From assembly GCA_000091205.1 (NCBI GenBank), contig AP006493.2: a stretch of DNA of 64,000 nucleotides, one strand, 5' to 3'. Below are positions 20,440 through 53,770 of the stretch, in pieces; position 1 is the first letter of the stretch; each line of letters opens with the position of its first letter. Origin of the DNA: Cyanidioschyzon merolae. Taxonomy: Eukaryota. The notes under the pieces are model-generated. The model saw only the letters and a program-made list of their open reading frames with translations. It did not search any database and was not told the origin of the DNA. Position numbers and translations under genes: made by a program.

Positions 20440-20935
20440 CCGCCGGGTTTTTTTTTGCCGATGCCGAAACGCTTTTATAAACCATCGATCCCAGATTGCC
20501 GGATGGATGGATTTTAGCTTTCGGGAAAGCGTCCATCATGCTGCCACACCAAGATCCATGACCTGTTCTCGGATGTAATGGTCTTTTTGTTCGTTCTATC
20601 GTGCACCCAGTACCTGGTTTGCCGCACCCGGCTTAACTCTTATATCTCGCTGGTGCCGATGCATCATGGAGACAGAGCGACTTTGCTGTGCCAGAGAGGG
20701 CATCGGCTAGAGGCGTGTTGCACTCGACACAGGATCGGAGAACACAAGCACTCTGGAAACCTGCAAGCTGTACATATAGCCCTGCTGTCTGTAGCAGCGC
20801 GAAGCTGTATGGTAGGAGTCTACTACGACTAGTGCAACGCCCAGGAAACGCTTTACGACTCCTAGTCCGAGAATAAACTGCGTTTCGAACGAGCTTCTCA
20901 GGTCTCTTCACAGCACTAGGCACTGGGAAACGTAT
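20440..20935 (-). mobile_element. SINE-like dispersed repeat, copy B
   Basis: Colinear with copy A (4022-4440), including ggtc-ttt-tgttcgttctatcgtg and gcaagct...gcagcgcgaagc...ctacgac. A T9 run at 20448-20456. Box-B-like cgttcgaaacg and box-A-like cctagtgctg on the minus strand near 20860-20930. Confidence 0.5.
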
Positions 20936-27719: not shown

Positions 27720-29033
27720 ACTCTAGGTGGTATGGAAAGTCAACTATCTGGAACTTGCTAACTGACTAGCTAGTGAGCTTCTACGATCATGTCTTATTCT
27801 TCGGCAAGGCGACAGTGCCCGAACGCAATGTTTCCCGATGAAGATGCAGCTGAACAATATTGTACTACATGGTCATCAGTCAGGATCGAGCCTCCGCCCA
27901 TCCCGCCTGACTCACAAAAGATAGTCTTCTGGAAAGCGAGCAGCACTGTATAGCCTACCATACGGTACTAGCGCGCCTGCGGGAAGGTTGCTGCCTGAAC
28001 GACAAGCAGGTCATGGAGGAGGCCTGGCTTCGAGTTTGCGAAGAGAGTCTGAGTGTGGCTTTTCAGAACACCGCTCCGGAGAATACGCTTGCCTATGATA
28101 GTTTCGGTGGAGCGCAGCGGTGCGCGCTGCGGGCCTTTGGACGCGTTCAGAGCGTCGTTGCGCCCACACAAAGACAGGTTCACACACAGAGCACCGAACT
28201 GAGCATAAAGAAGGAAGTGGCTCTGCGAGACGGAGAACACTGCGGCCGCCTGGGTCCAGCTCCGTCAAAGAGACCCCGCTCCGCCTTGCGTGGCGCTGAG
28301 GCTACTTCCACGCCTAGCGTGGACGTGGAAATCTATCAGCGGGAACTCTGCGACATAGCTTGTAGGCTGCTCTGTTTTAGGATAGCACCATGCTCAACGA
28401 GTAGCCATAAGCGTCAGAAAGTCTGTACAGAGGCTCTCAGTGAACGACGAGTGGAGCGATCAGGCACAAGTTTGCAAGGAGCATCCGCGGACGTGACCGG
28501 TTCAGCTCATAACCTCAGTGAGTTTGATGCTCCCGAGGATTGTGGAAAATATGACGCCGAAGGGATACAGCTGGTTCATGTCAATGAATCGGGAGAAGAG
28601 CCGGTTGGGCCGCCCCCATCGGATCTGTTTGAGTTGCATTGGGAGACGCCACCCGGAGGCTCCGCCTATCATCAAGGACGGAGCAGAACCATTACCGACC
28701 ATGATTTTCGGAATTTTTACTGTGCATGAGCACCATTTGTGTCTTTAAAAGAAGTGTAGTCACCGAGAATGCCACGCCATGGTGCTGCATCGTTTGGATA
28801 CGGGGAGTCTGCGATGGAGCATCGAATAGCGCGGGAAGTCCTATGCCGCAAAACGACGACGATCCTCTGTATATCGCAGGCACTATGCATTTCCATGGTG
28901 CGTTATCCGCGCAAAGACTTGTTCTGAAGGTATCGATGGTATCTCACGGGCATAAGTTGCCGTGCAAATGCAGAGACAACACACCGCTCTGAATTGCGGA
29001 CTGCAACGATTCCTCGGTCCTCCAGACCACATC

Positions 29034-29221: not shown

Positions 29222-30739
29222 TTAATGATACATTTTCATCAGCGCCTCGGAGACGGCTGCAGGCGTAAGCACCCCAAGATCCGTGATTAAAAGATGTATG
29301 TACGACCCCGGAGTCAAGTCACTGGGTGGGCACTCGAACTGCAACTGTTTGGGAATCTCCTCGTGGCGCGTCATTTGTCTGTAGGATCGTGGCGCGTGGT
29401 CCGAATCAGTCTTACTAATGTCGCGTTGCGTCAGTGGGTAAATGCGCACGAACTTGTATGATTCTGCAGCGATGAAAACCTGAACATTGAAAGTCTTTGC
29501 CGCGAGGGCGATGCCCAGGCTACCGACCTGATTGATGACGGCGCCGCTCTCGGCGATCGCTTCAGCGCCCAAAAGCACGATATCAATGACTTCCATTGCA
29601 GCAGGAACCGCACTGTCAGGAATGATGGTGACCTGAATACCGAGACGCATGACGTCGCAACAGAAACGCAACGTTTTGGCCGTCATCCCCGAAGAAAGCG
29701 CAGCATCATGGCGACCGCGGCCTTCTACGACCACAACACGAAACTGCTTTCGTTTCATGCGAGCCGCGCGCTCGATAATGCTGAATACCACACGTGATCC
29801 ACCATGAGTAAGGATATTGCTTCCCTGGAGAATGAAGGGCTCACCGAAAACAGCAATACGTTCCCGACACGTGTCCGTCATTGCGCGAAAGTGCTCGCCG
29901 CGTTGAATTAGCCGCATCTTGCACTCCGCAAAGTCCGGGAAGTCGAAGGAGGTCCTTGTTATGAACTTCACAAAAAGCTCGCACGCAGCCCTCACGGAGA
30001 GTTCACTCGAACGAGCGTACGAGATCATCTTGTCGCAGGCGCGTCTGACTTCTAGCTCAAGGCCATAAATGGTTTCCGAGCGAGAACATCGTATCAGATC
30101 GGTGAGCACGTGGACAGCCGCCGGAGCTGCCGGCGTCTCTCGCGCGAGCTCCGAGCGAAACCGCGTAAGAACATCGAACTCAGGCTCTGGGACGCCGGCA
30201 ACTTCGTGGGGCTGCCCGGGTTTCGCCTGTGCGGCCAAAAGATAGGTCACATCAAGCTGCGATTGCTTACGTTGTGTAAAAATCGAGCTACCGTCGGTTC
30301 CAGTGGGAGCGGCACACGCACCCTCACTGCTCGGAACACTCGTCCAAGGGGCAGCGCGCCCCGCGTTCGTGGCTGTCGATGTGCTCACGAGCGAGCCAGA
30401 GTCAGGTTGAACGTCTTTCGAGACCCGTTCCCGTATTGACGGCTCATGCATCAGATGGTCACTCTGTGTCCACAGAGTACAGCAACAAAACAAAGACAGC
30501 GAGTTTCTCTGGTGCAGTGCACCGGAAGCGTAGCAAGCTATCCGAAGATTGATAATACGAGGGCGCGTCCGCTGGCATAGCGTCGAGAAATTGAACATAT
30601 CGTGCAGGGCGTGTGCGCGCTCGCCAGAGTCCTTTTTCTGCGGAATCGTTTGCATCTTCCATGGATCCCACAGGCGTATGCGCTGGTTATCGGGATCCCG
30701 AGAACGTCCATCATGCCGAACCTGACGAACAAGTCCCAT
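29222..30739 (-). CDS. Translation initiation factor eIF2B subunit (IF-2B family, beta/delta-like). The true start is probably internal, near MHEPSIRERV.
   Basis: A C-terminal IF-2B family core: FRVVVVEGRGRHDAALSSG...VTIIPDSAVPAAMEVIDIVLLGAEAIAESGAVINQVGSLGIALAAKTFNVQVFIAAESYKF. Confidence 0.7.
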   Translation of the reverse strand: MGLVRQVRHDGRSRDPDNQRIRLWDPWKMQTIPQKKDSGERAHALHDMFNFSTLCQRTRPRIINLRIACYASGALHQRNSLSLFCCCTLWTQSDHLMHEPSIRERVSKDVQPDSGSLVSTSTATNAGRAAPWTSVPSSEGACAAPTGTDGSSIFTQRKQSQLDVTYLLAAQAKPGQPHEVAGVPEPEFDVLTRFRSELARETPAAPAAVHVLTDLIRCSRSETIYGLELEVRRACDKMISYARSSELSVRAACELFVKFITRTSFDFPDFAECKMRLIQRGEHFRAMTDTCRERIAVFGEPFILQGSNILTHGGSRVVFSIIERAARMKRKQFRVVVVEGRGRHDAALSSGMTAKTLRFCCDVMRLGIQVTIIPDSAVPAAMEVIDIVLLGAEAIAESGAVINQVGSLGIALAAKTFNVQVFIAAESYKFVRIYPLTQRDISKTDSDHAPRSYRQMTRHEEIPKQLQFECPPSDLTPGSYIHLLITDLGVLTPAAVSEALMKMYH

Positions 30740-31922: not shown

Positions 31923-32990
31923 TTGCAAAAATATAGCCCGGGGGATACCGCACTCGCCACTCTGGTTATGAGCTCGGCGATGCTCGAGAAAGTTCCAGAG
32001 TCCGATGAAGCAAGTATTCCCCTGAATGTGCACCGAGGCGTTGGAACCCTGACGGAGGAAGCGCCCGAGGTGCAAAGCGTGGACAAGCCGTCGCGCAGGA
32101 GAGCACTGCGCACGACGCTCCTGTGTTTGTTTAACGCTTTATGTACGATCTGCATCGTTAGCGCGAATAAACTCGTCTTTGAGGGTTACGGGTTCCGCTA
32201 CGGCACCACTCTAACGTTTTTCCACTTTTCGGCAACTGGACTGGGTCTCTTTGTGATGGCCGTTGTGCGCGTTTTCCGGCCAATACGTCTGGATCTGCAC
32301 AAAACCTGCCTCTTAGCATTCTTCGGCATGGGTTTCGTTGTCTTCACAAATCTATCTCTGCTGCACAACTCTGTTGCATTCTATCAGTTGTTCAAGCACT
32401 TGAACACGGTTGGCGTCATTGTGCTCGACTGGTCACTGTATCGGAAACCATTGCCTCCACAGTTGCGGCTTCCGATCTTTCTGCTGATTGTCGGCGTGCT
32501 CATCAATACCTTTGGTGATTATCGGTTCAATGTTCTTGGTACCGTATATGCCTCGGGGGGCGTCATCGTAACGTCATTCTACCAACTGTTGGTGGGGCGC
32601 TTCCAGGCGGAGCTACATTGCGATCCGATGCAACTACAGTTTTACACCGCACCTCTCTCGGCCGTCTTTCTCGCGCCATTTTTGCCCGTCTTTGACGAGT
32701 ACCGATGGTGGCGTGAATCATCCATCTGGCGGCATCCAATGACTGCAGGAGGAGCGGGCGCCATCTTTCTGTCATCGCTTATCGCTCTTCTTATGAATAT
32801 ATCAATCTTCGCGGTGATCGGGAACACATCAGCCTTGACCTACAATGTACTTGGACATGCAAAGACCTCCATCTTGCTCCTCATGGATTTTTTCCTTTAC
32901 GGTAGACCACTGAATTTGCAGAATACTCTAGGAGTTTTAATTGCGCTGGCGGGTGTGTTCCTCTATTCGCGAGCAAAGCTCTCGAAGTAA
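31923..32990 (+). CDS. TPT/nucleotide-sugar transporter family (DMT superfamily, SLC35-like) membrane transporter
   Basis: About ten hydrophobic helices. A C-terminal EamA/TPT-type segment NTSALTYNVLGHAKTSILLLMDFFLYGRPLNLQNTLGVLIALAGVFLYSRAK. Confidence 0.65.
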   Translation: MQKYSPGDTALATLVMSSAMLEKVPESDEASIPLNVHRGVGTLTEEAPEVQSVDKPSRRRALRTTLLCLFNALCTICIVSANKLVFEGYGFRYGTTLTFFHFSATGLGLFVMAVVRVFRPIRLDLHKTCLLAFFGMGFVVFTNLSLLHNSVAFYQLFKHLNTVGVIVLDWSLYRKPLPPQLRLPIFLLIVGVLINTFGDYRFNVLGTVYASGGVIVTSFYQLLVGRFQAELHCDPMQLQFYTAPLSAVFLAPFLPVFDEYRWWRESSIWRHPMTAGGAGAIFLSSLIALLMNISIFAVIGNTSALTYNVLGHAKTSILLLMDFFLYGRPLNLQNTLGVLIALAGVFLYSRAKLSK

Positions 32991-34335
32991 TGCGTAACAC
33001 GAAACGAAACGTAACGAGGCGGAAGATAACACGCTTTGTGTAGCAGCAGCAGTAGTCGTCGTAGTCATACTAGAAGCTATCTCGATTGGCGTTGCTGTCA
33101 TCTGGCCCCAGCTCCCAGCATGAGCGGTGCCTTTAGGATGAGTGAGCTTATGGCATCTCGCATGAACCCTTTTTGAGACTGCCTGCTCTTTCCCTCTTCA
33201 GTCCGTCTGTTGCAATTGATCGTCCGTGCTTGAAGCTGCTTCGATCCCGTGCAACTATAGCAGCTGCTGCAGCAACCGTGCTCGTTCTGCGCAATAGTCA
33301 GGGACGCCGTCTCTGGACACACCGTACGGCAGATGATTCCACGTATCGTATGGCGTGGAATCACTTCAGGGCCAGTGCTTCACTCGGACAGAGAAAAGCC
33401 CAGTGCTGGCATGAATTGGCCATCAAGCAGGACATGCATCCTGCGAGGTTCTTTGAATCAATTTCTGAACTTCTGCAATAGGCGGGGGAAGATGGTACTC
33501 GTGACCACGCGCATATAAGAGTCATCCGCAAAACCGGATAGACGCTACCTGGGCGCTGCGGATGGAAATCCACTGAAAGCGTCAACAAGCGCACTTGGGT
33601 AGGCCAGCGATTACTGCACAAACGCAGTAGAAAGAGTGTCATCCATCGACTCGCACATGGTTCATTAAGCGACTAGCTCATGGATTGCTCAGAGGGTCCA
33701 TTTCGCAGGGGAACACTACAGATCGAAGCTCACTCAACGGGAACTGCGACCCGCGTTTCGAGGGATGCTTTTGGGTTCTCGAAAGGCTCTGCAAGTGGAG
33801 CGCTGGTGGGTTATGTGGACGGAAACCACCACTGCACACAGCAATGCTCGTAGATATTCTCCCGTATTTGAGAATAAAGGAACGGGAATGCAAAGCTTTG
33901 CGTGCGTACACGTGAATGCAGCCTATCACAGGCATCGCGGGTGTCTTCATGTTGCATTGGGCTGGAAGGTTAATTTGAGGGCGGAGCAAAACGTACCTTC
34001 CATAAACTTCTGCGATGCTGATGTCAAGAGATCTCGCGCATCCGCAACCTGTAAGCCGACCAATGCCCCGAGCGGTGCGCCCGGTACCCATTCGTGTTGT
34101 GTCTTGGGCAGATAATGTATACGGTGTGCTGCACTGAAACTAATGGGTTTAAAAGTATTCGTGGATTTACGTTACACCTCGAGTAGCGAATCGTGATTCG
34201 TTTCTGCATTTCCAACCTGATGCGAGCGGCGGCATCTAGACGGCATCGGGTACGATGCATCCCTCCGGCAGCAGGTAAAGCACAGACGCTGCGCGTTGAA
34301 TGTCTCTGGAAGGAACCCGATGCAGCTGTAGAACT

Positions 34336-34895
34336 TCGATGAGAGCAATATACATAGTGCAGAAATCGATTCTACACGATTCTCATCGGTGCGTTCGGGG
34401 CGAAACCCACACATCATGGCACCGGATGCACACTGCAACAGGCCGAGAAGAAGAGCTTGAAACCGAGCCGACTGCACGAGATGGTACGCTGCAATTTGGT
34501 CGAACGTCACATGGCGAGGCTACCGATGGCTGAAGCCTTGCACGTCTGTGATTCACTCTGCAACGGTGCGCGCGCAGACGTGCTGCACCGAGTCTTGAAC
34601 GACTTGTGAAACAGTCCAAGATATCTGGTGCCTCTGCGGCGTCCAGTGGATTTGTGTCGAACGAACGCTCATGGTAATCGTTTAGCGCACAGCGTAGGCA
34701 TTGGCTGAACGGCAGAAGACTTTCGATTGAGAAACCAGTCATCAGGAGCCAAACGATACGATGTTCGCCCGATGCAAATCACTGATGTGGAAAGAGATGG
34801 CAATCTCAAAGGGCTAGAGCGCCGTATATCGAGACTGTGATCGTTTTCCCATGGCAACTGCTTAACGATAGTGTTATTCGACTATTCGATGTTCC
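34336..34895. repeat. Left arm of a ~560 bp inverted repeat whose partner is at 43128-43688
   Basis: The reverse complement of 34336-34895 matches 43128-43688 base-for-base apart from a few SNPs. ORF translations in the two arms are identical except at 3 residues. Confidence 0.9.
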
Positions 34896-35286
34896 TGAGT
34901 ATTTGAGTGCCGTTACATCCGCAACAATGATATGTGCATTCGGATGGAGCGCCATCCACCAGAAGACTAACGATACAGCCATGAATCAATACTGCTGACA
35001 TAAAATCATGTTTGTCGGTCCATTTAGAGGGATGCGTTCCATACGGTGGACATTTGTTCGAAAGCACAAGCACCGAAACGCGCTGGCGTTTCCGCCTGAG
35101 CACCAGCAGACGCATCTGACGCATCAGCAGCGGAGGCGGCAACTAGCGCTAAGCGTACCCCTCGATGTCGCATGCGCGACGGCTGCGGAGGTCTTCGCGA
35201 GGTCAGTGCAAGCGTGATCAATGGTCTTCAAACACTTGAAACCCGTGCACGGAACTCGTGACTCGATTCCCAAATGCGGCATCTTC

Positions 35287-36984
35287 TTAGCTGCTGTCAG
35301 CGGAAGTTGGTTGTCTCGTTTCAGGTAGATAACGCCAAAGCCAATATTCCCCGCCCATTAATATCAGAGCAAAGAAGAGAAATGTTCCAGCAATGCCAAA
35401 CAGTTCCCGCTGCAAGAGCGGGAAACCGATACTCACCGCAGTGGTAGCGACAGCGTTCACAACCATTCCGATCGAGTTCGCCGACGCCCGAGCCTCCGGC
35501 GAAAACAATTCATTCGCGACAAGAACAGCAAGCGGCCCGTGAGAGACAGCAAATACAGCGACAAACAACATGAGCGCTAGAAAGCCCGTAAATGCGACAG
35601 AGGATGAACCGTTTTCTGCTCGGGTCGCCCGGGCAAGCGCAAGATGACAGGCAGCAAGCACTGGTGTTGAAAAAAGGTACAGTTTCCGACGACAGGTGCG
35701 ATCGATGATACCGACTGCAACCAGCGTGGCAATCACGTTCATGACGGATAAAAGCACAGCACCGTACAAAGGCCCAGATAATCTCGCAAGGCGCCTGGAA
35801 GAACCCATCGCACTGGATTGCACTTGTTCCAAAATTTGCACACCATACACGAGGACAACGTTGATTCCAGTCAACTGTTGGAGAAGTTGAAGTATCATGC
35901 ATATCTGTATCCGCGGATCGCGCAAAAGGAGCCACACGCTCGCTCGAGATCGAGCTGTCGGGGACGATCCCCGAGCCAAAACTGCGTACATCGCAAAGCT
36001 CTCCACATCTTTCAAGCTCAGTGACTCGTTTTGCAAAGAAGGCCTCGAGATAACGTTGAAAGAGTGTCCCGCCTCGGCAGCATCTGGACGCAAGGCGCGT
36101 GCACTCGCTACCATACTATGCTCCCGCTCTTTCCGCTGCGACATCGGTTTCCCGGTCTCCAGCATATCGGCACTCGTAGCGTCCCTGTATGCAGAAACGC
36201 CCATGGAGGACTGATAGCGCAGCAGGCCGATACACATCAAGATAGCGGGCACGAGTGGATAGCGCAAAGGTCGGAGAAAGTTTCCGCGCATGTCGATCCC
36301 GGCGCCACCAGCAACGGGATCCACTTGACGGTGTACATCCTCGTGACCAGTGGCAAGATTAACGAGATTGGCCATAAGAATACCGATTGTTATCGCGAGC
36401 TGATAGAGAAAGACAAAGGCGCCTCTGCTTGTTGACGGAGCAACCTCTAGACACAGAGCTGGCCCGAGAACGTTCACGATGCCGGCGCCGATGCCAATCA
36501 GCAAGCGGTGGATGAGCAGCACCAGAAACGCACCCATCTGGAAGCGACCTGTTAACATCCGTTCTCGTTTTATGAGAAAAGGAAGCCCCGACCCGAGACA
36601 GAAGAACACCGAGCTCCAGCGTAGCCATAAATAGCGGCGCCAAGCAGCAGTTCCCGCCCCATGCGCAAGAAACGGGAGGACCCTCTGGTACAGGCATCCG
36701 ACGAAAGCTCCGACAAAGTACGACCCAAGCAGAACTTGCTCCCCGGAAGGCCACGAGCCGAACCAGTCTTGGAACGAGCGGAACGTCGTTACCGTTGAGA
36801 ACACTGCCAAGTGGTACCCGAAAAGCAACCCGCCAAGCAAACAAGACAGCAAACAAGGCCGGGCCCCAAAAGTGCTCAGAAACCTCTTCCATCTCACTGT
36901 GACGGTTTCCATGAAAGCAGGTCGAGCATAGTTTCTCACCAAGCAAACCAGTATGCCGCTCCGGCTGGCAGCAACTGCAAACAC
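35287..36984 (-). CDS. MFS sugar porter family transporter (hexose-transporter-like)
   Basis: 12-TM topology with a long central loop. GRRKLYLFSTPVLAACHLALA, the sugar-porter GRR motif after TM8. A C-terminal WRYLPETRQ, the PETKG-like motif. Confidence 0.7.
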   Translation of the reverse strand: MFAVAASRSGILVCLVRNYARPAFMETVTVRWKRFLSTFGARPCLLSCLLGGLLFGYHLAVFSTVTTFRSFQDWFGSWPSGEQVLLGSYFVGAFVGCLYQRVLPFLAHGAGTAAWRRYLWLRWSSVFFCLGSGLPFLIKRERMLTGRFQMGAFLVLLIHRLLIGIGAGIVNVLGPALCLEVAPSTSRGAFVFLYQLAITIGILMANLVNLATGHEDVHRQVDPVAGGAGIDMRGNFLRPLRYPLVPAILMCIGLLRYQSSMGVSAYRDATSADMLETGKPMSQRKEREHSMVASARALRPDAAEAGHSFNVISRPSLQNESLSLKDVESFAMYAVLARGSSPTARSRASVWLLLRDPRIQICMILQLLQQLTGINVVLVYGVQILEQVQSSAMGSSRRLARLSGPLYGAVLLSVMNVIATLVAVGIIDRTCRRKLYLFSTPVLAACHLALARATRAENGSSSVAFTGFLALMLFVAVFAVSHGPLAVLVANELFSPEARASANSIGMVVNAVATTAVSIGFPLLQRELFGIAGTFLFFALILMGGEYWLWRYLPETRQPTSADSS

Positions 36985-37294
36985 TTTTTTCCTCGTTGAA
37001 GTCGCCCTCGCAGATGCAGCCGATGCGTTTGGGATGTCGCAGTCGCAGCAGCCGCACTAGTTTCCTACCACTTCGGTTCGTATGTTGCAGCAGCTGTTGT
37101 TCGTTTCAGGAGCGTTACCCTTGGAAGCTCGAGTTTGCGTGCACAGGGATTCACCGATACCGATTTGCGAGGCAGGAGACCGAAAGCACTGGAGGCGCCA
37201 CCCCAAGGGTGCAACGCAACCCAGTTTGCAGAGCCTCGGACGGCCGTTGATCTTTCCGAAGCTGAGCGAGCTTTTCAGCCGAAGTTTGACTGTC

Positions 37295-38473
37295 ATGGCG
37301 CTCGACCCTGAACCTCGAGCAGGACGCAGTCTTGGTCGCTCTGTAGATGACGCTGGGAGCCTACGCTTTCACGCTGGGGACGGCCTGGTTCCGAACGAGC
37401 TGGTGGAGGCGCGGAGCAGCTTCGGTGCACTGCCCCCGCGACACTGCCTCTTCGCGGAGTTTCTCGGAACCGCGCTGCTGACGACTTTTTCCGGCTTAAT
37501 CGGCCTTTCGAGTCCTGCTGCAGTGCCGTTTCTTGCGGGTGCAATGATCTCCTGTATAGTACTGAGTTTCATTCCCACGTCAGGAGCGCTTTTGAACCCT
37601 TTTGTGGTGCTCGCGCTCTACGTCACAAAGCGCCTGAGACTGGTACCGAGCCTTGCGTATACGGGCGCTCAACTTGCTGGCGGCACTCTGGGTGCCGTTA
37701 TCTTTAGCCTCTTGGCGACGCCAGACATGTATAATCGTGTGGCGGGGGGCACGGTCTCATTGCAGACCAACATGTCTCTATGGCAGGGAGCGGGCTGGGA
37801 GTTTTTCCTCACATTTAGCCTGATCTCGCTAGTTTCAACAATGGGGTTTGCAGCCTTCGAACTACACGCAGAGAACGAATACGCTCGTTGGATGCAGCAG
37901 GCTGTATTTGCGCTTCTAATAGGATTGCTTGTTGGATTCCTTGTGGGTGTCGGTGGCCCGATAACGGGATGCTCCATGAACGGCGCACGCGCTTTGGGGC
38001 CGCTCGCAGTCGCGCAGCTCCGGGCATGGATGACAGCGGCTTCTCCAGAATGGCTTGAACGGGCATCTCGAGGTCATTTTGTGATCTACTGGTTGGCACC
38101 GGCTTTGGGCTCGGTGACTGGCGCCCTGCTCATGGAACATGCCATCGTATCACCTTGGCTTGGGCGTGCTCCAAAATCTATCCTGCAGGATTTGAGCGTC
38201 TACACCAAGCGGAACATGGCTCAGCTGCGTAGCTATGGTACAGCTGGGCTCCTTGCGTATGGGATTCTGAACACCATTTTTTACGGTTCGGTTTTCACAT
38301 ACAGTTTGGTCTTTGTCTTTGCATCGCAGCCTGGGGCAATCGCCAAGGCTTGGGCGGCGAGCTGGGTCGCAAGTCAAGCGACGAAACCTTTTCGACTTTT
38401 TCTGGCGATCGCTATGGCGCCCTGGATTCGACGACTCCTTGAAAGGCTTCCTTGGAATCGGCACCAAAGCTAA
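37295..38473 (+). CDS. MIP/aquaporin-family channel with non-canonical NPA boxes (NPF and NGA) and a ~150 aa C-terminal extension. The ORF track runs from 37082; the ATG is at 37295.
   Basis: Loop B SGALLNPFVVLALY, where the canonical form is SGAHxNPAVT. Loop E GCSMNGARALGPLA, where the canonical form is G-x-x-x-NPARD-x-GP. Six hydrophobic helices in the expected spacing. Confidence 0.65.
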   Translation: MALDPEPRAGRSLGRSVDDAGSLRFHAGDGLVPNELVEARSSFGALPPRHCLFAEFLGTALLTTFSGLIGLSSPAAVPFLAGAMISCIVLSFIPTSGALLNPFVVLALYVTKRLRLVPSLAYTGAQLAGGTLGAVIFSLLATPDMYNRVAGGTVSLQTNMSLWQGAGWEFFLTFSLISLVSTMGFAAFELHAENEYARWMQQAVFALLIGLLVGFLVGVGGPITGCSMNGARALGPLAVAQLRAWMTAASPEWLERASRGHFVIYWLAPALGSVTGALLMEHAIVSPWLGRAPKSILQDLSVYTKRNMAQLRSYGTAGLLAYGILNTIFYGSVFTYSLVFVFASQPGAIAKAWAASWVASQATKPFRLFLAIAMAPWIRRLLERLPWNRHQS

Positions 38474-40184
38474 TGCAAAACTTGACGCGTTTCCTCAGGA
38501 GCTCTGTACGTCTCGCCGCTTGTGAACTGCTGTCTATGTCGATGCGATGCTGTCACTAAAGTACGTCATGTTGCGGGGTAGTAGTTGATTCACACCCGGC
38601 AAGGTGCAGAGATCGAAGTTTCTCGCTGGATCGAACCGATAGAGGCACGGTGACGTTCGATGTGACCGGAGCGAAAGCAGAGAAGCGATCGAAGCGCAAA
38701 GCGCTGAGGCGTTTGCTTCCGAGTTCGTTCTCGTATGCGCTGCAGTAGCTCTTGCGAATTCTGGGGCTAAACTAAACGAGGCATCTGAATGGTCGCATAG
38801 AAGGAGCCTCGCAGCCCTTTACATGCTTTCTTGGGGCTCCAAAGGCAGCACCGTACGTTGTACGCTCCAGGAGGCTTGGAATGCGTTGCCTCGGATCGGT
38901 TTGCGACGAGACAATGCCATCATAGCTGTTGCGGAAGTTTTGATTCATCAGCGGCCGGATCGCTCATGATCTGAGCTGGTGGCCGAAGAATCCCTGAACT
39001 GCCGGAACGGCCAGCGCTGAGCCTTCGCAAGACTTGAGCGCAGGTGTTTTCAACGGCTGAGACCGATGTATCTAAAAGGATTCTTTCATATGCGCGAGCG
39101 TTGTCTGTAACCGCAGGCGACGTGTGAGAGAGAAGTTGCATCTGCAGTTGCAGGAAGTTTACCGCGTGTTGCATTGCTTTCTGTAGGACTGGCAGGAGCA
39201 CTCTACGTATAATAGATGGGTTATGAACGGGGTGCCTCAACTGCTATTGCGCACTTTTAAACTCCAAAATGAGCGCTTTGCATCCTGGATGACGGCATCC
39301 GCGTCACCGAAAAGAACAACATGGCATCAACCATCGCCATGGATTTCCTTTTACGGATACGAGTGGTGCGTCGCCAGTCTCGGAACTTGGCCAGCGCTTC
39401 ACGTTCTATTTCTAATTCACTGTCAAGGAATTTGTTAACATATCTCAAGTTTATGTTACGCAAAGAGCACGGTGAGAAGCGAAAGGCGTCTGAAGGAAGT
39501 TCACACATGGTCGATGACATCAGTAGATTGCATTATTTCTTGAAAAGACCGCACGCTGGAGCAGATTTTTTCAGATCATTACAAATCAGATCGCTCAATA
39601 GCGGGAAAGAGCTCGAAGACTATAAGCAGCACGGAATGAACTGTGCTCAAGAAGCATAGCTTGCACCATAGGCTCAGTGTCAGCGCCCTGAACGGGCATT
39701 GCCTCTGTGCGCAGCAGCGGCAGGCAAGGCTCTCCCGATAAGCTTCCAGCGCATCGGCGCCTTGCATTCCTTGGAAAGAACAGTTCATCTACAAGCCTCA
39801 TACTGCAAACCGAAACGAACGCGATTCTCCGCGCACATCTACTGGGGCGCTCAAGACCCGGCCCAGGCAGAGATGCAGCTCGACATTTTCGTCGTGTTCG
39901 CAGGTTGACTCCCTTTTGTAGCACTGGATTGGTGCAGGCAGACACTTGTCGGCATCCAAGTGCATCAATATTCAGAAATGTTATACGCATAGATCAGATG
40001 AAAATGGAACACTGAATTGCTCGCTCTTTTCCTGCCTCTCGATTGTTTTCCAAACTTTTTTTAGATATTCAGCCTCGGCATTCCAAGTGCAGCAGGAAGG
40101 GCATGCGCATTCTTAAGAAGCTTTCGGAATCTCGATCGTCTTTTCGGAGTGGCTCCATGTACTCTCGAACGCTGGCATTCGTTA

Positions 40185-40290
40185 CGTCACCGGAATCAGG
40201 ATGACTCGCGACGCCATCAAACAGGGGTTCGAAAAATAAGCGATATCATTATCGAATTCATTCAGAAAAGCATCCAGTCTTCTGCATTAC
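40185..40290 (-). repeat. Short dispersed repeat (family 2), copy 3, in inverted orientation
   Basis: ggaatcaggatgactcgcgacgccatcaaacaggggttcgaaaaataagcgatatcattatcgaattcattc is the reverse complement of copy 1 at 10255-10335. Confidence 0.6.
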
Positions 40291-40579
40291 TTTCGTGTAG
40301 CATGCTCAAGTCACGCATTATTCAATATTTTGACCTCTCTATATGAAGGCAACTCATGGGTAAAGCAAGTCGCTCCGTTGGATTGACGCAGAAAAACACT
40401 CGACCTCGTCAACGCACAACGTGGGATATGCTTGAGGCATCCATCGCTGGCGCGCATTGCTACCCTGACGAGTTGCCATAGAACACAACTTCGAACACGT
40501 GAAGCAATCGTGATTTGAGCATGCTATGCGTATGAAAGGCGAAGACTGGACGATTGTTCGTATAAATTTTCTTGCATTG

Positions 40580-40665
40580 TATCGGCTATGTAAAGAACCC
40601 TTGGTCGAGGCTGTCGCGAACTCCGTTGTTTCAAGTAACGTATCGAATCCCAGCGTCACATAGAG
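40580..40665 (+). repeat. Short dispersed repeat (family 2), copy 4
   Basis: gaacccttggtcgaggctgtcgcgaactccgttg...cgaatcccagcgtcacatagag aligns with copy 1. It lies ~300 bp from inverted copy 3. Confidence 0.5.
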
Positions 40666-40988
40666 TCGATGAAGCCACCCCGAAAAGATGACGAAGAATC
40701 CTTAGAAACACATATTCATCTGTAAGACCTTATTGCCCTACTTCGGATGTCGAAGCTGTCCATGTAAAAAACGTTCAAAAATATTGCAACACAGGGACAG
40801 AGCGAGCAGTTCACGGTGGTATTCGAACATGACACGAGCGCGCGTTCATGCGCAAGCGCATGCTGTTGCGGCTGGAGCGGCACCACGCTTACCAAATACC
40901 GCTTCGTACTTCGTGTCACTTCGTGAACGGGAACGTGTGCTGTAGATGGTACGAAGATCACGGTTGTCCTTGAAACACTGCACCAAAC

Positions 40989-43076
40989 ATGGGAATAGCG
41001 GGATTCCAGCGCTGGTATCTGGAGAATTTCCCCAGCACAGTCGTTACGGTAACTGGGGAGAGCGCGCCTGAGCACTTTGACCACGTGCTTTTCGACCTGA
41101 ACCAGCTTATCCACTTGGCAGCGCGCGTCGCAAGAAACCGCGACCAGTTTTTCATCCGTTTATTCAGGTGGTTAGATAACATTCTTCGGCTTTGTGTACC
41201 GAAAAAGTCGGTCTTCATAGCGTTTGATGGCCCGGCGCCCTTGGCGAAGCTCGTTACGCAAAAGCGAAGGCGCGTCCTCGAGTCGAGGAAACTCCACCGC
41301 ACGCGCAAACGCAAACGACGTTGCGGCGTTGATGTGCTCAGCCTTTCGCCTGGAACAGAACTTATGCAGCTGACTTTGCAGGCTGTAGAATTTTACGTTT
41401 GTTCTCGACTGCAATCGAAGCGTCATTTGTACCAGAACGTGCGTTTCGTTGTGAGTGGTCCGACTGTTCCCGGCGAGGGCGAAATAAAAATCATCGACTA
41501 CATCCACCGCTATGTGGACCCGCAGCACTCCGTTGTCGTCATTGGCAGCGACGCTGATCTCGTGGTATTAGGACTGGCAACGCAGAAAGTTCGGAATTTC
41601 TTCGTCTTCGTTATCACTCCGCGAGCCAATATGCAGGACGCGCCCGAGCACGGGACTGCTCAGAAACGACAGGCTATAAGCGCCATCGTCATTAGCGTCT
41701 GGCAGTGGATTCGGGTTCTTGATCGTTTTTTCCCCGGTGAAACACCGTCTCTGCGTCTAGATCTGGTTGTGATGCTCATGATGCAGGGAAACGATTACTT
41801 GCCAAAGCTGCGCGGCACTTCATTTAATTCGATCTGGGAGGCGTACAAGGCTTTGAAATTGGACAAAGGGCCCATGCGAGGAAAATACCTCGTATGCAGA
41901 GAGCAGCGCAGTTTCGACTGGGAATTCCTGTACGCGCTCATGAAGCGCCTCATCAACCCGCTGGTCCCGAATCTTACGAAAGAGCTCATCGAAATGTATC
42001 GAGAAGCGAGCATACGTGGGCAAGAAGCGCTGAGACTCGCCCAAGCGGGGAATGCATCCGTAGAGGCCTCGTCATCCTGCGAATCCGAGTCAAAAGATTC
42101 AGTCGAACGCAACGTTCACCCGAGTGATCTGGAAGATGGCACCGAACCTGACGCTGCGCACGGCGAAATTTCGGCGGACGTCACGGATCCTGAGGATATT
42201 TTGGAGAAAGTGGATATACCGGAAGGCATATCGGTGGACGACGACGAGAAGCTGTACGACACAGAGGAATGGCTGCGAACGTTGCTTTGGGCGCTCGCGA
42301 TGTATATTGATGGATTCTGTCCCGATTTTTACCACACATATTCAAGGGCCTATGGACCATCGGCATCAGACATTGTTCGATGGCTTAAGGAGAACGACGG
42401 TGATCCGCTCCTGCAACTGCAACCGCCGTTGAGCGTTGCACCACCGCTACCACCGCACGCAGCGCTGTTAGCCCTGGTCCCGGCGAGCGCGGCGAGGCTT
42501 CTACCGCAGCCCATCTTCAAAAGAGTACTCTTGCGAAGTCAGCAGCAAGCCGAGAACTCCGAAAGCGCCGCAGAGATGGGAACGAATGCCGACGAGACTG
42601 CAAAACTGATCACATTCATCTTGCAAGATGACGGGCGACGCACGAATCGTTCACTTCTTTTGCGTGTTGTCGAAGGCATCCGCGATGACGAATACGAAGA
42701 AATCGAGAAGCATCGGACCCGGTTAAGCTCGTCGGTGGCTTTCGCACTTCGTCAGGGTGACATGTCTGGCAATGGTCGGACGTGCGCGAGCTCCCAGGAG
42801 CGGGCCCCAAAACTACCAGAGCCGCCTGTGCAACGGTTCGCCAAGCTGTCGCTGTCAGGTGCAGAGTTCAGCATTGAGGGCGTCCAACTTACAAGCACGC
42901 CGCCGTGTCGCTCATGGTGCTGGAGTACTGACGGGACGGAAGCGCGTCGAACGAGCAAAAAAGCGGTTTCGGTACAAAATCTGTCGTACAAGCGCGTATT
43001 TACCCGCAAAATACAATCGGAACGTTCTCAGCGGGACAGAAAACGCATCAACCATGCGACTGAAAGAAATCCTTAG
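40989..43076 (+). CDS. XRN: XRN-family 5'-3' exoribonuclease, short form (695 aa)
   Basis: Conserved N-terminal XRN blocks are all present: MGIAGFQRWYLENFP (compare MGVPKFFRW), FDLNQLIH (DMNGIIH), FIAFDGPAPLAKLVTQKRRR (AIDGVAPRAKMNQQR), VPGEGEIKIIDYI (PGEGEHKI) and IGSDADLVVLGLA (GLDADLIMLGL). Confidence 0.8.
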   Translation: MGIAGFQRWYLENFPSTVVTVTGESAPEHFDHVLFDLNQLIHLAARVARNRDQFFIRLFRWLDNILRLCVPKKSVFIAFDGPAPLAKLVTQKRRRVLESRKLHRTRKRKRRCGVDVLSLSPGTELMQLTLQAVEFYVCSRLQSKRHLYQNVRFVVSGPTVPGEGEIKIIDYIHRYVDPQHSVVVIGSDADLVVLGLATQKVRNFFVFVITPRANMQDAPEHGTAQKRQAISAIVISVWQWIRVLDRFFPGETPSLRLDLVVMLMMQGNDYLPKLRGTSFNSIWEAYKALKLDKGPMRGKYLVCREQRSFDWEFLYALMKRLINPLVPNLTKELIEMYREASIRGQEALRLAQAGNASVEASSSCESESKDSVERNVHPSDLEDGTEPDAAHGEISADVTDPEDILEKVDIPEGISVDDDEKLYDTEEWLRTLLWALAMYIDGFCPDFYHTYSRAYGPSASDIVRWLKENDGDPLLQLQPPLSVAPPLPPHAALLALVPASAARLLPQPIFKRVLLRSQQQAENSESAAEMGTNADETAKLITFILQDDGRRTNRSLLLRVVEGIRDDEYEEIEKHRTRLSSSVAFALRQGDMSGNGRTCASSQERAPKLPEPPVQRFAKLSLSGAEFSIEGVQLTSTPPCRSWCWSTDGTEARRTSKKAVSVQNLSYKRVFTRKIQSERSQRDRKRINHATERNP

Positions 43077-43127
43077 CAGGGGCTGCGCGAACAACTTGGG
43101 GTAAGCGCTCAGGCCCAATTATTATGT

Positions 43128-43688
43128 GGAACATCGAATAGTCGAATAACACTATCGTTAAGCAGTTGCCATGGGAAAACGATCACAGTCTCGATATACG
43201 GCGCTCTAGCCCTTTGAGATTGCCATCTCTTTCCACATCAGTGATTTGCATCGGGCGAACATCGTATCGTTTGGCTCCTGATGACTGGTTTCTCAATCGA
43301 AAGTCTTCTGCCGTTCAGCCAATGCCTACGCTGTGCGCTAAACGATTACCATGAGCGTTCGTTCGACACAAATCCACTGGACGCCGCAGAGGCACCAGAT
43401 ATCTTGGACTGTTTCACAAGTCGTTCAAGACTCGGTGCAGCGCGTCTGCGCGCGCACCGTTGCAGAGTGAATCACAGACGTGCAAGGCTTCAGCCATCGG
43501 TAGCCTCGCCATGTGACGTTCGACCAAATTGCAGCGTACCATCTCGTGCAGTCGGCTCGGTTTCAAGCTCTTCTTCTCGGCCTGTTGCAGTGTGCATCCG
43601 GTGCCATGATGTGTGGGTGTCGACCCGAACGCATCGATGAGAATCGTGTAGAATCGATTTCTGCACTATGTATATTGCTCTCATCGAA
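43128..43688. repeat. Right arm of the ~560 bp inverted repeat whose partner is at 34336-34895
   Basis: See the left-arm entry. The inner ends face the 8,232 bp spacer. Confidence 0.9.
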
Positions 43689-46600
43689 TGAGCTGGGTCG
43701 CAGCCTTTTCGCGTTGCAGCACGTCCAGCGTCGTCGGCTACCGCCACACGACGCGACGTTTCGAGCATTTTCTTCTAAAATTGTTGTAGTTGGCAAAGGC
43801 ACGCCTCTTGCCTCAGTGCAACAGAAACCGTTGGCGTCCCAGCACAGATGCATGTTCTCCTGCAGAAGATCATCGGCTTGAGCTATTTGGACCCTCGTGT
43901 ACTCCCTGAATGAAGCCTGGAAAGCATTCTCCTCTGATCAATACGATGCCTAGATCATCGAGCTAGGTCCTGGGGCCGTCATTCCTCTTATTGGTGTGCC
44001 TCGTGGCGTCCCTAATGAAGGACACTCGATGATCCAGAGCTCTCGACAAGCTCTGCATCTTCATCTGCGTTCTGTTCAGGTCTTTGGCACCATCCGCTTA
44101 TTGCATACGTACGGGAATGGATGTGATGCCCTCCAAATGAGGAATAATGCCCACCACCATGTTTTTTTTCTCCTCATCTATGTTGACGGGTGGGAAACGA
44201 GTATCGTTAGTCGGGACGAGCACAGGTATCAAAAAGTGCATGACGATTGATACACTCTCGATCTCCATCGTCCCGTTCTACTGGATTCCTTTTCCTCTCT
44301 GTGCAAGAGAAGCCTTGAATGAACTCCGCCAATGCTCTCTGCAAAATTGTTCGAATGCATCATCGATTCTTCCAGAGACCAGCCGAATTTCTCACGGAAG
44401 AGGCTATACACCACAGCATTATCTTCGGCGATATATTTGGACTTGATGTCGTGTATAAGGATCACTTCGCATATACGCTCGTGTTCGGCGAGTCTACTTT
44501 GCTCCGGAGCGCTCCGTTCGGGAACATGTCCTAGTGCAAGATCCCAGGAAGATAGCCCTCAAGTGTCTATCGTTGTTTAGGCACGACAGCTTCTGTTCGC
44601 GGCTGAAAGCAATACGACGATTGTGGACGATCTGAAGCGACTCTCGCCTTTGTTGTGAAATCTCATCAGGACGCACGAGTACTTCGAGCTCTGCAACCGT
44701 AGACAGCTCGGTGTTCACCCCCGATGACAACCCCAAGAATCACTTCCTTCAATCCGCATTTTTCTGGGCTAGTGCGGTCAGCATATAACGCCCACAGCGC
44801 TCACTTCATCGAGCTCATGGTATTGGCCAAAGTATGCTTTTGGGTTTCGAGGTTGTCCAGGTACTTTTTTGGACCTGCGCAGTACAAATTCCCCTTGCCG
44901 AGGTGGCACAAGGTCGTACCAAGGTATTCCGGGTAGCGCGTGTGGAATCCAACTTGATCCTAGGATCAGGTTGATTTGCAATTTCTGTGTCGAGCGTCAT
45001 TTGGTTTTTGCTCACAGGTTTGATAGAAAACTTTCTGAGCAACGTGGACAGCTGGCAGCCCCGCTTCTTGAACTCGGGCGGATAGTTGGTTGACGAGGCG
45101 CGTCAAGGAGATGGACCCTACTGAAGACTTCCTCGGTCAAGATGCTACATTGGCCCTAATGGCGTCCTGCATGTCACTTTTCGGAAGCGTCAGCGAGATA
45201 ATGTGTTTTAGTAGCAAGGCCTCGAAAATGGTTTGGGACCGATGTTTCCGATCCGATATCATTTCTCGTCGGTCGTGAGTCGAGCATTTTTCTCGAGGAT
45301 CTTTCTTTTTTTTGTATTTCGGTTTCCTTTCCTTCCCCTTTTCCTGGCAGAGTGGTATACAAGTGTCCCCATGCTTCATATCCGCTCCGTTGCTCGGGAC
45401 TCAGGCCGACTGCGCGAACGATGGCATCGAAGCTCGCCCTCATTACATATGCGAACTATTCCTCGAGTTCGCGTCCATCATCCTGTCTTTCGCGAGCGTA
45501 TGCACTGACCAAAGCGCGCTTTTCAGTTTCTGCAAGTGCTCGATCACAGGAGCAACAGAGCAGCTCAGCACTGGTGAATACAGGGTTTGACTTGTCAGTG
45601 AACAGATTGTTGATGAGCGGTGACATGGATGCGAACGACCTGTCAATCGGTCCGTGATCGTAAAATTGTTATTCAACTACGGAGAAGACGCCTTCGACTG
45701 GATTGCACCGCGAGCCATATGCAGACACAACCAGGAAAAAACGCCAAAACTCAGATGCATACTTCTTAACCGCTCTTGAGCGATAGAAAGCGACACTGCC
45801 GAGGAATAAGCCTAATGGATGTGGGAAGCGGAAGCGATAAAGTGCTTATACGAAAAACCTGGTCTTGCTCGATGCTATGCGTTTGCTGACTCAGAGACGA
45901 CCACACAATCGCATCGTCGGTGGAGATGGTGTTTTCATCACGCTCGCTTGTTTCTTCAATACGAACAGCGATTCGCGCCTCTTTGAGTCCAAAGTACATT
46001 GGCCTACCCATTCTCCCCATTAATGTCATATCGAATGAGATGCACATCCGTACCTCCTCCTGTAAGCGTTCGCGTTTCAGTCCGAACTTGCTAGTTTGTT
46101 GTTCAGTGCGCGACGCTCTCGAATTCACGTGTGCTTTTTCCTCGCTCATCCGTCTCTCTTCTTCATCGTTCGTAGGCAAGGCAAGGGAAACCCATATCCT
46201 TCTGTGTCTGTTGCGGTATTTCATGGAGATCGCACGGCATGTATTTAGGTGAATACGAGACAGGCGCTCTGGCAGCGTTTCATAAGTTCAGCTTTGTACG
46301 GATCACGTGACGGACAGCGAGTGTGAGAAGGGAGGCGCATCCACCTGTTGACCGCAGCATGCCCGTTTCTTACAAGCAGACTGTTTTTTTGCAGGCTAGC
46401 ATTCACAGTATAAAGTCGTCCTGCTACCATTTTCCAATCTAAAGGGCAAAATCGTTTTATTCGATTACTTTGAGAAAACCAAAATAGGCACCAAAAAGGT
46501 GTGCCGCTACAAACACTGCGACATTTACTGTTCCAAGTTCGACCTTCGGAAGAAATATGCAAGCACCTGAGCATCTACCATGTCCACGTGCGGCGTTGCA

Positions 46601-48289
46601 TCTACATCCGTTCCAGATTAAATGCAACACCGGACAGCTCGTCCAGCCCCTGGCTTTAGATCGTTTGCCGAACCATTGACGTGCGGAATCGATATCCGAA
46701 GAGCAGCAAGAAGGGCTCACGGGATGACGAGTAGTTTCAGCATTCTCGGCCGTTTTCTCTGAATGGCTTCTTCGAATCTATGCAATTTGGGTTCTCTTCA
46801 TCATTTTCAGCAAGATAATTCGCGACGCCGTCGAATACTGGTTCGTAAAAAACCCGAAATCCTTATGAGATTGATACGGATAACGCTCCACCCTTCAATG
46901 TTACCATCTCTCGGTATCGAGGGAAATCGTGGGTGCACCACTTCAAGGCGCTGGATTGACGACTAAAAACACGATGTCATTGCATGACGACAGCTACACA
47001 GGCTCATGCCGGAAGTTCCCTTAATTTCGCATTTCAACGATTCGATTCCATTTGAAACGCAAAGCATGTTCTATTCGTAGTCATCGACGAAATGGCTTTC
47101 CACGTCAGCTTGACATCTCCCAGGAGATACTCTCCCAGCGGCTTTCTTATCTTCCGCCTGCATGGGAGCGGTCACGGAGTAAACGTTGAGTCATCGCGGC
47201 GATCGTCTCCCGTGACCGGTGCTTCTCTATTTTGGACGAAAGGAACCTGTTCGGATCGAAATTTCTCGACGGGATCTCTAGCCTGGACTTTTCGTCTGGC
47301 ACTTGTTTCATCACCGACAGCCTCGAGCTCCAAGAACCATCAATAAAATGGAACAACGTGGGTTCGCGGTGCGGCAGGCAGAGCACTCGCCGATAGGGTC
47401 ATGCAGAAGAGGCCCGTGATCCTAGGATACGGCGCCAGGGGCGCAAGCGCAGGCGGAGGAGGATGCAGGGTATCGTGGGTAGCCTTCAGTACCCGTCAAG
47501 CGCGTTAATCGAAAACGATAAGCAAGGGTTCATGCGCAGCGAAGCAGCCCCAGAAGCAGAAAATGTGGCAGACGCGTAGCGCCATCGGACTGTAGGCAAG
47601 TGCCGACGCTGCGATGGGCCCGCGGAGGATTTGAACAACGAAGATGAGCATCATAACTGAAGCATCAACCGCAATGATTGCTTCTGCATGAGGTGCGTCG
47701 AAAAATGCCAGAGACATCGGAATCAAAACTCTGATGCTGCGATCAGCATCGTGTGACTGCTGACGACAGATCTCGAGGCAAAGGAGAGACCGGTGAATTT
47801 GAACCCGGTGATGCTAGTCAGGAAAAGAAAGCAGTGGACGAAATAGCCTAGAAAGGCATGTTTTGATGACAACCGGAACAGAAGCATACACTAGCGTTTA
47901 CCGCAGAGTCAAACAACTGGACTCCGTTCGATTTTGTGCACAGATGCGTATCAGGCGCTGAGCAGTGGCGGCAGTCAGCGCAACAGCCCCCTTAGACAGT
48001 ACATCAGCTCCCATTCACTTGATTCGCCTCGCATCCGTTCCCGTAATATTGCTCCAAGCCGAACCAAGACGCATATGTCTATACTGCGGGAGCATCCTCT
48101 TGTATAAATACAGGACACCTGTTGCACAGACTCATTTGCTTATCGGTGAATATATTTTTCCCCATGCAGTATCCGTTCCCTGATGCCCATCTTCGTGCCG
48201 TTGGGACCTCAAACTAGGCAAAATGCGAGATACCCGAGTTCGTAGGAGAGACCAGCCACTCGCAAAAATCTATTGTTTGTCCATTGTAG

Positions 48290-48700
48290 CGTCCGTGTGC
48301 CAGGCCTCGTCTTCATGTTTTCGAAAGCATACGCATGCGAGACGCAAGCTTTGCGTTCCGAAGGAGTTTACGATCTAACACCTGCGGTTGCGCTCAGCAC
48401 AGACTTCGCAGGCCACCTGCTGTCGGTGCTTCGGGCGGATGCATCCGACTCATCCTCGAGCCGACGCCTTTTGTGGTACGGTAACGCCGTTCTGTCTCGG
48501 TGCAGCGACAGCACCGGCGCTGTAGGCGCTATTGCTGCCGCTTTCGGCAGGCTCGGCACACGATAGGACGTACGAAACGACCAGAATATCCGAGATGAAG
48601 TATAGGTAATATAACATGGGAGTAGGGGGTTGATGGATACCTCACCTCGCACTGAAAAAAATAACACAAAAAAGTAAGAAAAGAAAAATGCGCATAATCG
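48290..48700 (+). mobile_element. SINE-like dispersed repeat, copy D, in opposite orientation to copies A to C, with an A-rich tail at 48655-48700
   Basis: The reverse complement of 48480-48640 matches ctggtcgtttcgtacgtcctatcgtg...gcaatagcgc-tacagcgccggtgctgtcgctgcac of copy A. An A-rich stretch gaaaaaaataacacaaaaaagtaagaaaagaaaaa follows. Confidence 0.5.
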
Positions 48701-48845
48701 GAGAACGCTGGCCTATGGAAACGTTTTGCCAATGGAAAAAAATCCGACTCGTATGCAATCGCGAACGTCGCGAAAGCAGCTCCTAGAAGGATTCTTTCTG
48801 TGGCAGCAGCGGAGCTTGGTGGACGGCAGGTGTTCGCGGTGTCGC

Positions 48846-53476: not shown

Positions 53477-53576
53477 GCAGACGGCTAACAGCTGAACCCC
53501 GATCTATAACGTTTCGATGAGAATGTTTCTTATTTGACAAAAATCTTTACACAAGCCAGCGTTCCCCGATTGTGTG

Positions 53577-53770
53577 CTTGGTATCAGCGCGCAGTAAAGC
53601 ATCCGTCGTTCCACCTAATTCCAAGTTCCATTACCCATTTTTTCTCGGATATACTGGTCGTTTCGTACGTTCTATCGTGCGCCTAGTGCATGCTGTGGGC
53701 GTCCGCGGTAGCGCCAAGAGCGCCGGTGCTGTCGTAGCACGGGGACAGGACGGTTTTACCGTCCACAAAG
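53577..53770 (-). mobile_element. SINE-like dispersed repeat, copy C (partial or diverged)
   Basis: gcgcagtaaagcatccgtcgttccacctaattccaagttccattacccattttttctcggatatactggtcgtttcgtacgttctatcgtg...gcgccggtgctgtcgtagcacgggga is colinear with copy A at 4022-4200. Confidence 0.5.

Follow-up and report, generated by a model that had tools for sequence, protein, structure and literature searches.

An inverted repeat flanks a three-gene cassette of Cyanidioschyzon merolae that lies inverted in the Cyanidiococcus clade

Unique segments of DNA lying between inverted repeats are known from several settings. The inverted-repeat isomers of plastids, the FLP/2-micron system and bacterial invertons either interconvert at high frequency or depend on a dedicated recombinase. 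Human repeat-mediated inversions arise by non-allelic homologous recombination (NAHR) between inverted repeats, with gene conversion between arms that as a rule measure from kilobases to hundreds of kilobases, and their recurrence has been shown on haplotype trees. In Drosophila, staggered breaks leave duplications of 46 bp to 1.9 kb (median 321 bp), 12 of 18 of them of one-breakpoint origin (Ranz et al., 2007; PMC1885836). In Saccharomyces, a 24-kb “flip/flop” region of chromosome XIV, bounded by a homogenised inverted repeat, re-inverts on an evolutionary timescale and is stable in the laboratory (Salzberg et al., 2022; PMC9731477). Here we describe a 561-bp inverted repeat that brackets an 8.2-kb cassette of three genes on chromosome 11 (852,849 bp) of the red alga Cyanidioschyzon merolae 10D, within a 64,000-nucleotide stretch of contig AP006493.2 (assembly GCA_000091205.1; the whole stretch is called the window below; proteins BAM80454-BAM80461; CMK062C). 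The structure belongs to a known kind, the small inversion bounded by a repeat, and is neither a transposon nor an assembly error. Our best reading is that it is a breakpoint-associated inverted duplication whose arms are kept alike by conversion and through which NAHR would flip the cassette rarely, over evolutionary time.

The structure was delimited by an inverted-repeat search as follows:
34335-34895, no strand assigned, left arm (561 nt)
43128-43688, no strand assigned, right arm (561 nt; the reverse complement of the left arm, with 4 mismatches)
34896-43127, no strand assigned, spacer or cassette (8,232 bp, three genes, both end genes facing outward)

The two arms are 99% complementary (99.3% identity) and lie 8,232 nt apart. 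A sequence-only reading of the window had described them as reverse complements differing by a handful of bases, and its description and coordinates both hold, apart from a left-arm start that was one base off (34335, not 34336). Numbered from the outer edge inward, the mismatches fall at arm positions 55, 66, 70 and 247 in a pairwise alignment, and in the same alignment the similarity ends abruptly at both ends. The junctions are without microhomology, and Smith-Waterman comparison beyond the arm edges found neither residual similarity (score 15 vs. 14.2 +/- 1.2 for shuffles) nor an eroded margin outside them. By self-BLAST the arms are the sole high-identity repeat within the window, the remaining repeats being old dispersed families at 67-80% identity. 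The left arm occupies the convergent intergenic region between a TPT-family transporter gene (TPT) and a sugar porter gene (SP), 1,344 nt past the stop of the former and 391 nt past that of the latter; the right arm starts 51 nt past the stop codon of an XRN-like gene (XRN) and ends 5,037 nt ahead of the open reading frame (ORF) of a diacylglycerol kinase (DAGK). A 24-mer from the arm centre was present in 4 records among 241 million metagenome records, all at the two arm sites and in the orientation of the window, and no further copy of the arm was found elsewhere in the window or among the 241 million records. Since the arm is found nowhere but at these two sites and shows no hallmarks of a mobile element (see below), it is a two-copy duplication confined to one locus and not a dispersed or mobile family. 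“Inverted segmental duplication junction,” one of the possibilities raised at the outset, is right as a description.

The evidence that ties the repeat to an inversion comes from gene order across the cyanidiophytes. In the window the order is CAF1A (-), TauE (-), eIF2B-alpha (-), TPT (+), then the cassette with SP (-), MIP (+) and XRN (+), then DAGK (+) and Ataxin-2 (-), with the 561-bp repeat at the cassette ends. The outgroup Cyanidium caldarium (L040, and at chromosome level L043) has the same gene order and orientation with no repeat, and its cassette-boundary spacers are only 15 and about 140 bp. In Cyanidiococcus yangmingshanensis (L041, and at chromosome level L042) and in a sister lineage of Cyanidiococcus (four assemblies, L036-L039, including GCA_041825655.1) the three genes are inverted between the same neighbours, again with no repeat. 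In C. merolae and Cyanidium, TPT thus has the sugar porter next to it and DAGK has XRN; in the Cyanidiococcus clade the partners are exchanged, so that DAGK lies beside the sugar porter and TPT beside XRN, the latter two genes converging across about 1 kb. Because the cassette is inverted there between the same flanking genes, the arms of C. merolae sit in the inversion breakpoint regions: at least one inversion of the cassette has taken place, with its breaks in the very intergenic regions that the two arms occupy. Pairwise identities of seven proteins give the topology ((sister lineage, Cyanidiococcus), C. merolae), Cyanidium, in agreement with the published taxonomy (PMC9812998). The genes that define the arrangement in the window are:
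31923-32990, plus strand, TPT-family transporter (left neighbour, defines breakpoint 1)
35287-36984, minus strand, MFS sugar porter (Sugar_tr, E = 1.5e-56; 565-aa ORF from GTG)
37082-38473, plus strand, MIP/aquaporin BAM80460.1 (463 aa; NPF box at 172 and NGA box at 300)
40989-43076, plus strand, XRN-like protein BAM80461.1 (695 aa, XRN_N as its only domain)
48726-50771, plus strand, diacylglycerol kinase (right neighbour, defines breakpoint 2)

Smith-Waterman comparison detected no relic of an inverted repeat at the cassette boundaries of the Cyanidiococcus clade. Neither the arms nor the boundary intergenic DNA gave more than noise when searched by blastn, nhmmer, tblastn and tblastx against the corresponding loci of Cyanidiococcus, the sister lineage and Cyanidium, the intergenic DNA being too diverged to align, and no relative closer to C. 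merolae than these was found; the negative from the alignments is weak, because a positional-orthologue control, a 238-aa ORF, was likewise undetectable in the relatives. In the literature we found no account of the repeat or of the three-gene inversion. The published synteny analysis had a minimum block of five genes (PMC9812998), and the rearrangements described between strains 10D and MS1 are on chromosomes 3 and 19 (PMC13353863).

The second line of evidence comes from other strains. More than 25 metagenome or SRA assemblies yielded contigs that match the window at 99.3-99.9% identity and, on the strength of that identity, represent conspecific strains (an exact look-up of the window XRN protein gave no contig, and variants from the XRN protein cluster were used for the contigs instead). 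In short-read assemblies the flank contigs end inside the arm, and the spacer appears separately, as a contig of 8.24-8.32 kb, in many samples. Contigs from six samples do span one or both arms, with junctions identical to those of the window: both arms in 3300050358 and 3300050357, the left arm in JGI24721, and the right arm in 3300050376, 3300027863 and Ga0209012. A conspecific contig, L044 (JGI24721J26819_10020710), crosses the left arm at its positions 1979-2320 in the orientation of the window and is without arm positions 18-142 and 325-403, its ORFs being fused into a 183-aa call; the gaps are either a real deletion variant or an assembly artefact, and another assembly of the same project (L034) has an intact arm.

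Thirteen arm positions are variable among the strains, and there is no fixed left-versus-right difference at any of them. Because short-read graphs collapse the arm interior, interior sites were left out and only sites within 70 nt of the unique flank, anchored on 25 nt of flank, were used for phasing. At positions 20/55/66/70 the left-arm haplotypes were GAGA (five times), GATC (twice), AAGA (twice) and AGGA (once, in 10D), and the right-arm haplotypes were GATC (four times), GAGA (twice) and AATC (once, in 10D). The GAGA and GATC haplotypes, which differ at two linked sites, are therefore each shared by the two arms, and site 20 is found in every one of its four possible combinations with sites 66/70. 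Differentiation between the arms is partial: the left arm carries mostly GA and the right arm mostly TC at positions 66/70, and the inner-edge variants 497A and 546T are limited to right arms. With both haplotypes in both arms, all four combinations and no fixed difference, these short-read contig data show that the arms exchange sequence by occasional gene conversion in both directions, and conversion keeps them about 99% identical. The “ongoing homogenisation” that had been offered to account for the identity of the arms is thereby borne out by the flank-phased haplotypes; the “very recent event” offered beside it is not needed for the identity and is contradicted in part, since the partial left/right differentiation makes the duplication older than the coalescence of the sampled strains. 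Polymorphism density is 20-23 per kb in the arms vs. 9-18 per kb in nearby non-coding DNA, a modest excess. Interior single-nucleotide polymorphisms common to both arms of one sample (247, 298 and 356) were discarded, again because the interior collapses in short-read graphs. In two respects, the high identity of arms flush with the spacer and, on the short-read contigs, their homogenisation by exchange, the locus resembles the repeat-bounded segments that NAHR inverts in yeast and human.

We are confident of a causal link between repeat and inversion, whichever of them led to the other, and we lean, with some reserve, towards the repeat having come first and NAHR having then toggled the orientation. 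On this history the repeat, which may have arisen by a staggered-break inversion or an earlier duplication, would already have been carried by the ancestor that Cyanidioschyzon and Cyanidiococcus share; reciprocal exchange between the arms (NAHR) would then have inverted the 8.2-kb cassette; the Cyanidiococcus clade would have become fixed in one orientation, its repeat decaying, and C. merolae would have been left in the other orientation with its repeat upheld by gene conversion. Flips would be rare, on an evolutionary and not a population timescale. A flip of the cassette would be nearly silent or neutral, because the promoters are internal, the end genes point outward and the same arm sequence lies downstream in either orientation: the divergent promoters of SP and MIP are both inside the cassette, XRN has an upstream region of 2.5 kb of its own, and arm sequence lies downstream of both outward-facing end genes. 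C. merolae is known to undergo meiotic recombination (PMC13353863).

Several points weigh against this history. We infer NAHR as the cause of the Cyanidiococcus-clade inversion from lineages that, in their inverted state, have neither the repeat nor a detectable relic of it. One orientation change on the four-lineage tree accounts for the data, so that recurrent flipping is not seen, and all arm-spanning contigs (from the six samples) share one orientation with the finished 10D genome. The sharp, uneroded edges of the arms fit a young duplication more easily than one that predates the split of the genera. Finally, the shared polymorphism could come from exchange between alleles, at a time when an inversion was segregating alongside chromosomes without the duplication, and, with interior arm sites possibly collapsed, the evidence for exchange is limited to sites within about 70 nt of the unique flank.

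In a different history the repeat is a by-product. A recent staggered-break inversion in the C. merolae lineage would have turned a Cyanidiococcus-like order back into a Cyanidium-like one and made the repeat in doing so, the 561 bp being what lay between the staggered nicks of the TPT|XRN breakpoint, filled in and end-joined; the repeat would have mediated no inversion. The arms do look the part: they are inverted, non-repetitive copies at both breakpoints, flush with both segment ends, as expected of a one-breakpoint origin, and at 561 bp they fall inside the range reported (from tens of bp up to about 2 kb). Their sharp edges and their junctions without microhomology fit as well, and the want of an eroded margin favours a younger duplication; with the right arm close to the XRN stop, and XRN and TPT converging in the Cyanidiococcus order, an unbroken run of TPT flank, arm and XRN may once have existed; and reuse of breakpoints was common in the Drosophila study (PMC1885836). 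This model, however, makes the duplication-bearing order the derived one, yet the outgroup Cyanidium shares the orientation of C. merolae, and the model holds only with two inversions that reuse both breakpoints exactly, an unlikely event unless a repeat or a fragile site helped it. Nor is the duplication very recent: strains 0.2-0.6% apart coalesce after it, and its two copies are partly differentiated. We consider this history unlikely, though it is the main alternative to the repeat-first history.

A more ambitious version of the repeat-first history is improbable. It would have the repeat be ancient, predating the split of Cyanidioschyzon and Cyanidiococcus, and retained through gene conversion on account of a function, as a 119-aa micro-gene and/or as a 3' end or terminator shared by the two outward-facing genes, with the cassette a repeatedly toggling flip-flop that needs no recombinase. 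The candidate micro-gene is an orphan ORF carried by both arms:
34383-34742, minus strand, 119-aa orphan ORF of the left arm (reads from the inner to the outer edge)
43281-43640, plus strand, the same 119-aa ORF in the right arm (reads outward)

Polymorphisms in this ORF are 7 synonymous to 3 non-synonymous, whereas no other frame makes more than 5 of the 10 synonymous, an excess with P of about 0.009 uncorrected and roughly 0.05 allowing for six frames. Three observations count against coding: its GC2 exceeds its GC3, unlike the real genes at this locus; Pfam gave no domain in it (nor could the sequence-only reading recognise any arm ORF); and no homologue was found outside C. merolae, only one conspecific contig matching among 5.8 billion proteins. 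The ORF is probably non-coding. We also dropped the arm as a structured RNA, as the fold of the right arm (z = -2.57) is uncompelling; Rfam (at the gathering threshold) and tRNA scans gave no match anywhere in the window.

A few features of the arm sequence are recorded here in their own right. The 7-mer TTCGATG stands at both ends of the arm (34335-34341 and 34885-34891, with equivalent sites in the right arm), for which chance is about 0.006 post hoc, and the window holds 22 copies vs. 7.8 expected (about 3-fold). TCGA is about 4-fold over-represented in the arm, and TGAG opens the sequence immediately on the inner side of the left arm as well as that on the outer side of the right arm.

It is improbable, too, that the coincidence of repeat and breakpoints means nothing, that is, that the repeat is a static 561-bp inverted copy left by something unconnected with the inversion, for instance a template switch during replication or gap repair. 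The inverted lineages are repeat-free, no orientation polymorphism is seen in C. merolae (contigs from the six samples and 10D), and the intergenic DNA of C. merolae is expanded and more repeat-rich than that of Cyanidiococcus (PMC9812998), all of which would suit such an accident. Against this, both arms fall in exactly the two independently used breakpoint regions among roughly 4,800 intergenic regions, and the arms do interact, as their sharing of haplotypes shows. From that number of regions we estimate, without a formal computation, that an unrelated repeat pair bracketing this segment by chance is very unlikely (<1%), even with several hundred micro-inversions.

Still less probable is an active flip-flop, with both orientations at appreciable frequency in C. 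merolae populations or cultures. Arms of this length and identity in a host with efficient homologous recombination make it conceivable, and most short-read assemblies, with contigs ending in the arms, leave the orientation open; contig breaks at a 561-bp repeat are expected anyway, however, and every contig that does resolve an arm agrees with the finished 10D orientation. Among the arm-spanning contigs and 10D there is neither a balanced flip-flop nor a strain fixed for the opposite state, with the proviso that contigs reflect the majority path of the assembler and a minor isomer would escape notice. The opposite orientation is found in the Cyanidiococcus clade. A switch run by a site-specific recombinase is likewise not what the locus encodes: Pfam gave only Sugar_tr, MIP and XRN_N in the cassette, with no transposase or recombinase, and no domain in ten ORFs from the flanking and spacer non-coding stretches, so that no recombinase gene lies in or beside the segment. 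The “inversion-prone segment” of the sequence-only reading thus stands over evolutionary time, given the Cyanidiococcus-clade inversion and the exchange between the arms, and falls as a flip-flop within populations, given the single orientation in the six samples and 10D.

A composite or foldback transposable unit, which cargo between long identical inverted arms brings to mind, or an assembly mis-join is scarcely credible: no target-site duplication was found outside the arms (the longest k-mer shared by the flanks is 5 nt and out of register), no terminal inverted repeat of the arm, no transposase and no other copy of the arm, the cargo genes are syntenic orthologues of genes in three other cyanidiophyte lineages, and a mis-join is excluded because contigs from six independent samples share the junctions of the window, the C. 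merolae reference being moreover finished telomere to telomere, gapless and with very few transposons (PMC1955436).

As to the cassette itself, Pfam and the ORF positions confirm the cargo first proposed for it (a sugar porter on the minus strand, an MIP channel with NPF and NGA boxes and an XRN-like protein on the plus strand). Metagenome gene callers put the length of the sugar porter at 423-565 aa, and the MIP gene is divergent from it. Full-length relatives of the XRN_N-only protein are confined to cyanidiophytes (46-64% identity), with weaker ones in other red algae (Pyropia, Compsopogon) and in metagenomes; the second XRN domain (PF17846), present in more distant matches, is missing from it. 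The inverted pair of short repeats noticed in the spacer is real (40013-40315 and 40509-40813, 67% identity) and is an old dispersed repeat. It belongs to a family with further copies at 10186-10438 and 46678-46857; another family is at 3933-4554, 20549-21044, 48460-48746 and 53570-53779, and a dispersed pair at 12645-12974 and 53785-54117. This makes three or more old dispersed families in the window (67-80% identity), and the arms are related to none of them. A tandem array with a 153-bp unit, of at least five or six copies at 66-96% identity, lies near the window end (62795-63706).

Outside the cassette, the roughly 5 kb between the right arm and DAGK (43689-48725) has no ORF with a Pfam match and holds copies of two of the old dispersed families (46678-46857 and 48460-48746). 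XRN and DAGK are about 140 bp apart in Cyanidium, and the corresponding boundaries measure 1.0-1.7 kb in the Cyanidiococcus clade; the expansion of this boundary DNA is specific to C. merolae. In the sister lineage, intergenic tandem repeats of 93-95 bp lie near TPT and eIF2B (L036 14566-14751 and 4502-4687; L038 10014-10298), with a copy number of 2 versus 3 between assemblies. The eIF2B-alpha ORF (29222-30739, minus strand) is 505 aa in metagenome calls vs. 409 aa in GenBank (BAM80457.1), the annotated start being different. The 238-aa ORF that served as a control (28013-28729, plus strand) lies between eIF2B-alpha and TauE; an ORF of the sister lineage (L036 16645-17358) matches it in size and position without detectable similarity (tblastx, 1e-3), and it may be a fast-evolving orphan gene.

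The main value of the locus is as an experimentally tractable case. C. merolae has a finished, repeat-poor genome in which genes can be targeted efficiently by homologous recombination, and as of 2026 its sexual cycle can be put to use (PMC13353863); here it offers a clean three-gene inversion bounded by 561 bp together with a sister genus in the opposite orientation. Such a system could be used to measure the rate of conversion vs. crossover between short inverted repeats in a eukaryotic chromosome, to follow how a non-coding repeat persists under conversion, and to ask whether repeats of this kind cause micro-inversions or result from them. There is also a practical side: short-read assemblies break at this locus, and synteny pipelines with a five-gene minimum (PMC9812998) overlook micro-inversions.

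Set beside the systems with which we began, the locus shares with plastid isomers, FLP/2-micron and bacterial invertons a unique segment between inverted repeats, but it has no recombinase and no mixed orientation was detected here. Human repeat-mediated inversions have been shown to recur, whereas a single change is seen here. The likeness to the staggered-break duplications of Drosophila is closer, in that the arms are single-copy, non-transposon sequence, flush with the segment ends, of the right size range, referable to one breakpoint and placed in reused breakpoint regions; the Drosophila duplicates, however, decay (mean identity about 88%), whereas the arms of C. merolae are 99.3% identical and exchange sequence. 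The closest precedent is the flip/flop region of Saccharomyces chromosome XIV. There the repeat is 4 kb long and consists of functional sporulation genes, against 561-bp arms in which no gene is recognised; 15 genes lie in a segment of 24 kb, against three in 8.2 kb; and both orientations occur within species, with multiple re-inversions, whereas here they differ only between genera and the related lineages in the inverted state are without the repeat. What the two have in common is a compact, unicellular eukaryotic host and a multi-gene segment bounded by a near-identical, homogenised inverted repeat, with no dedicated recombinase.

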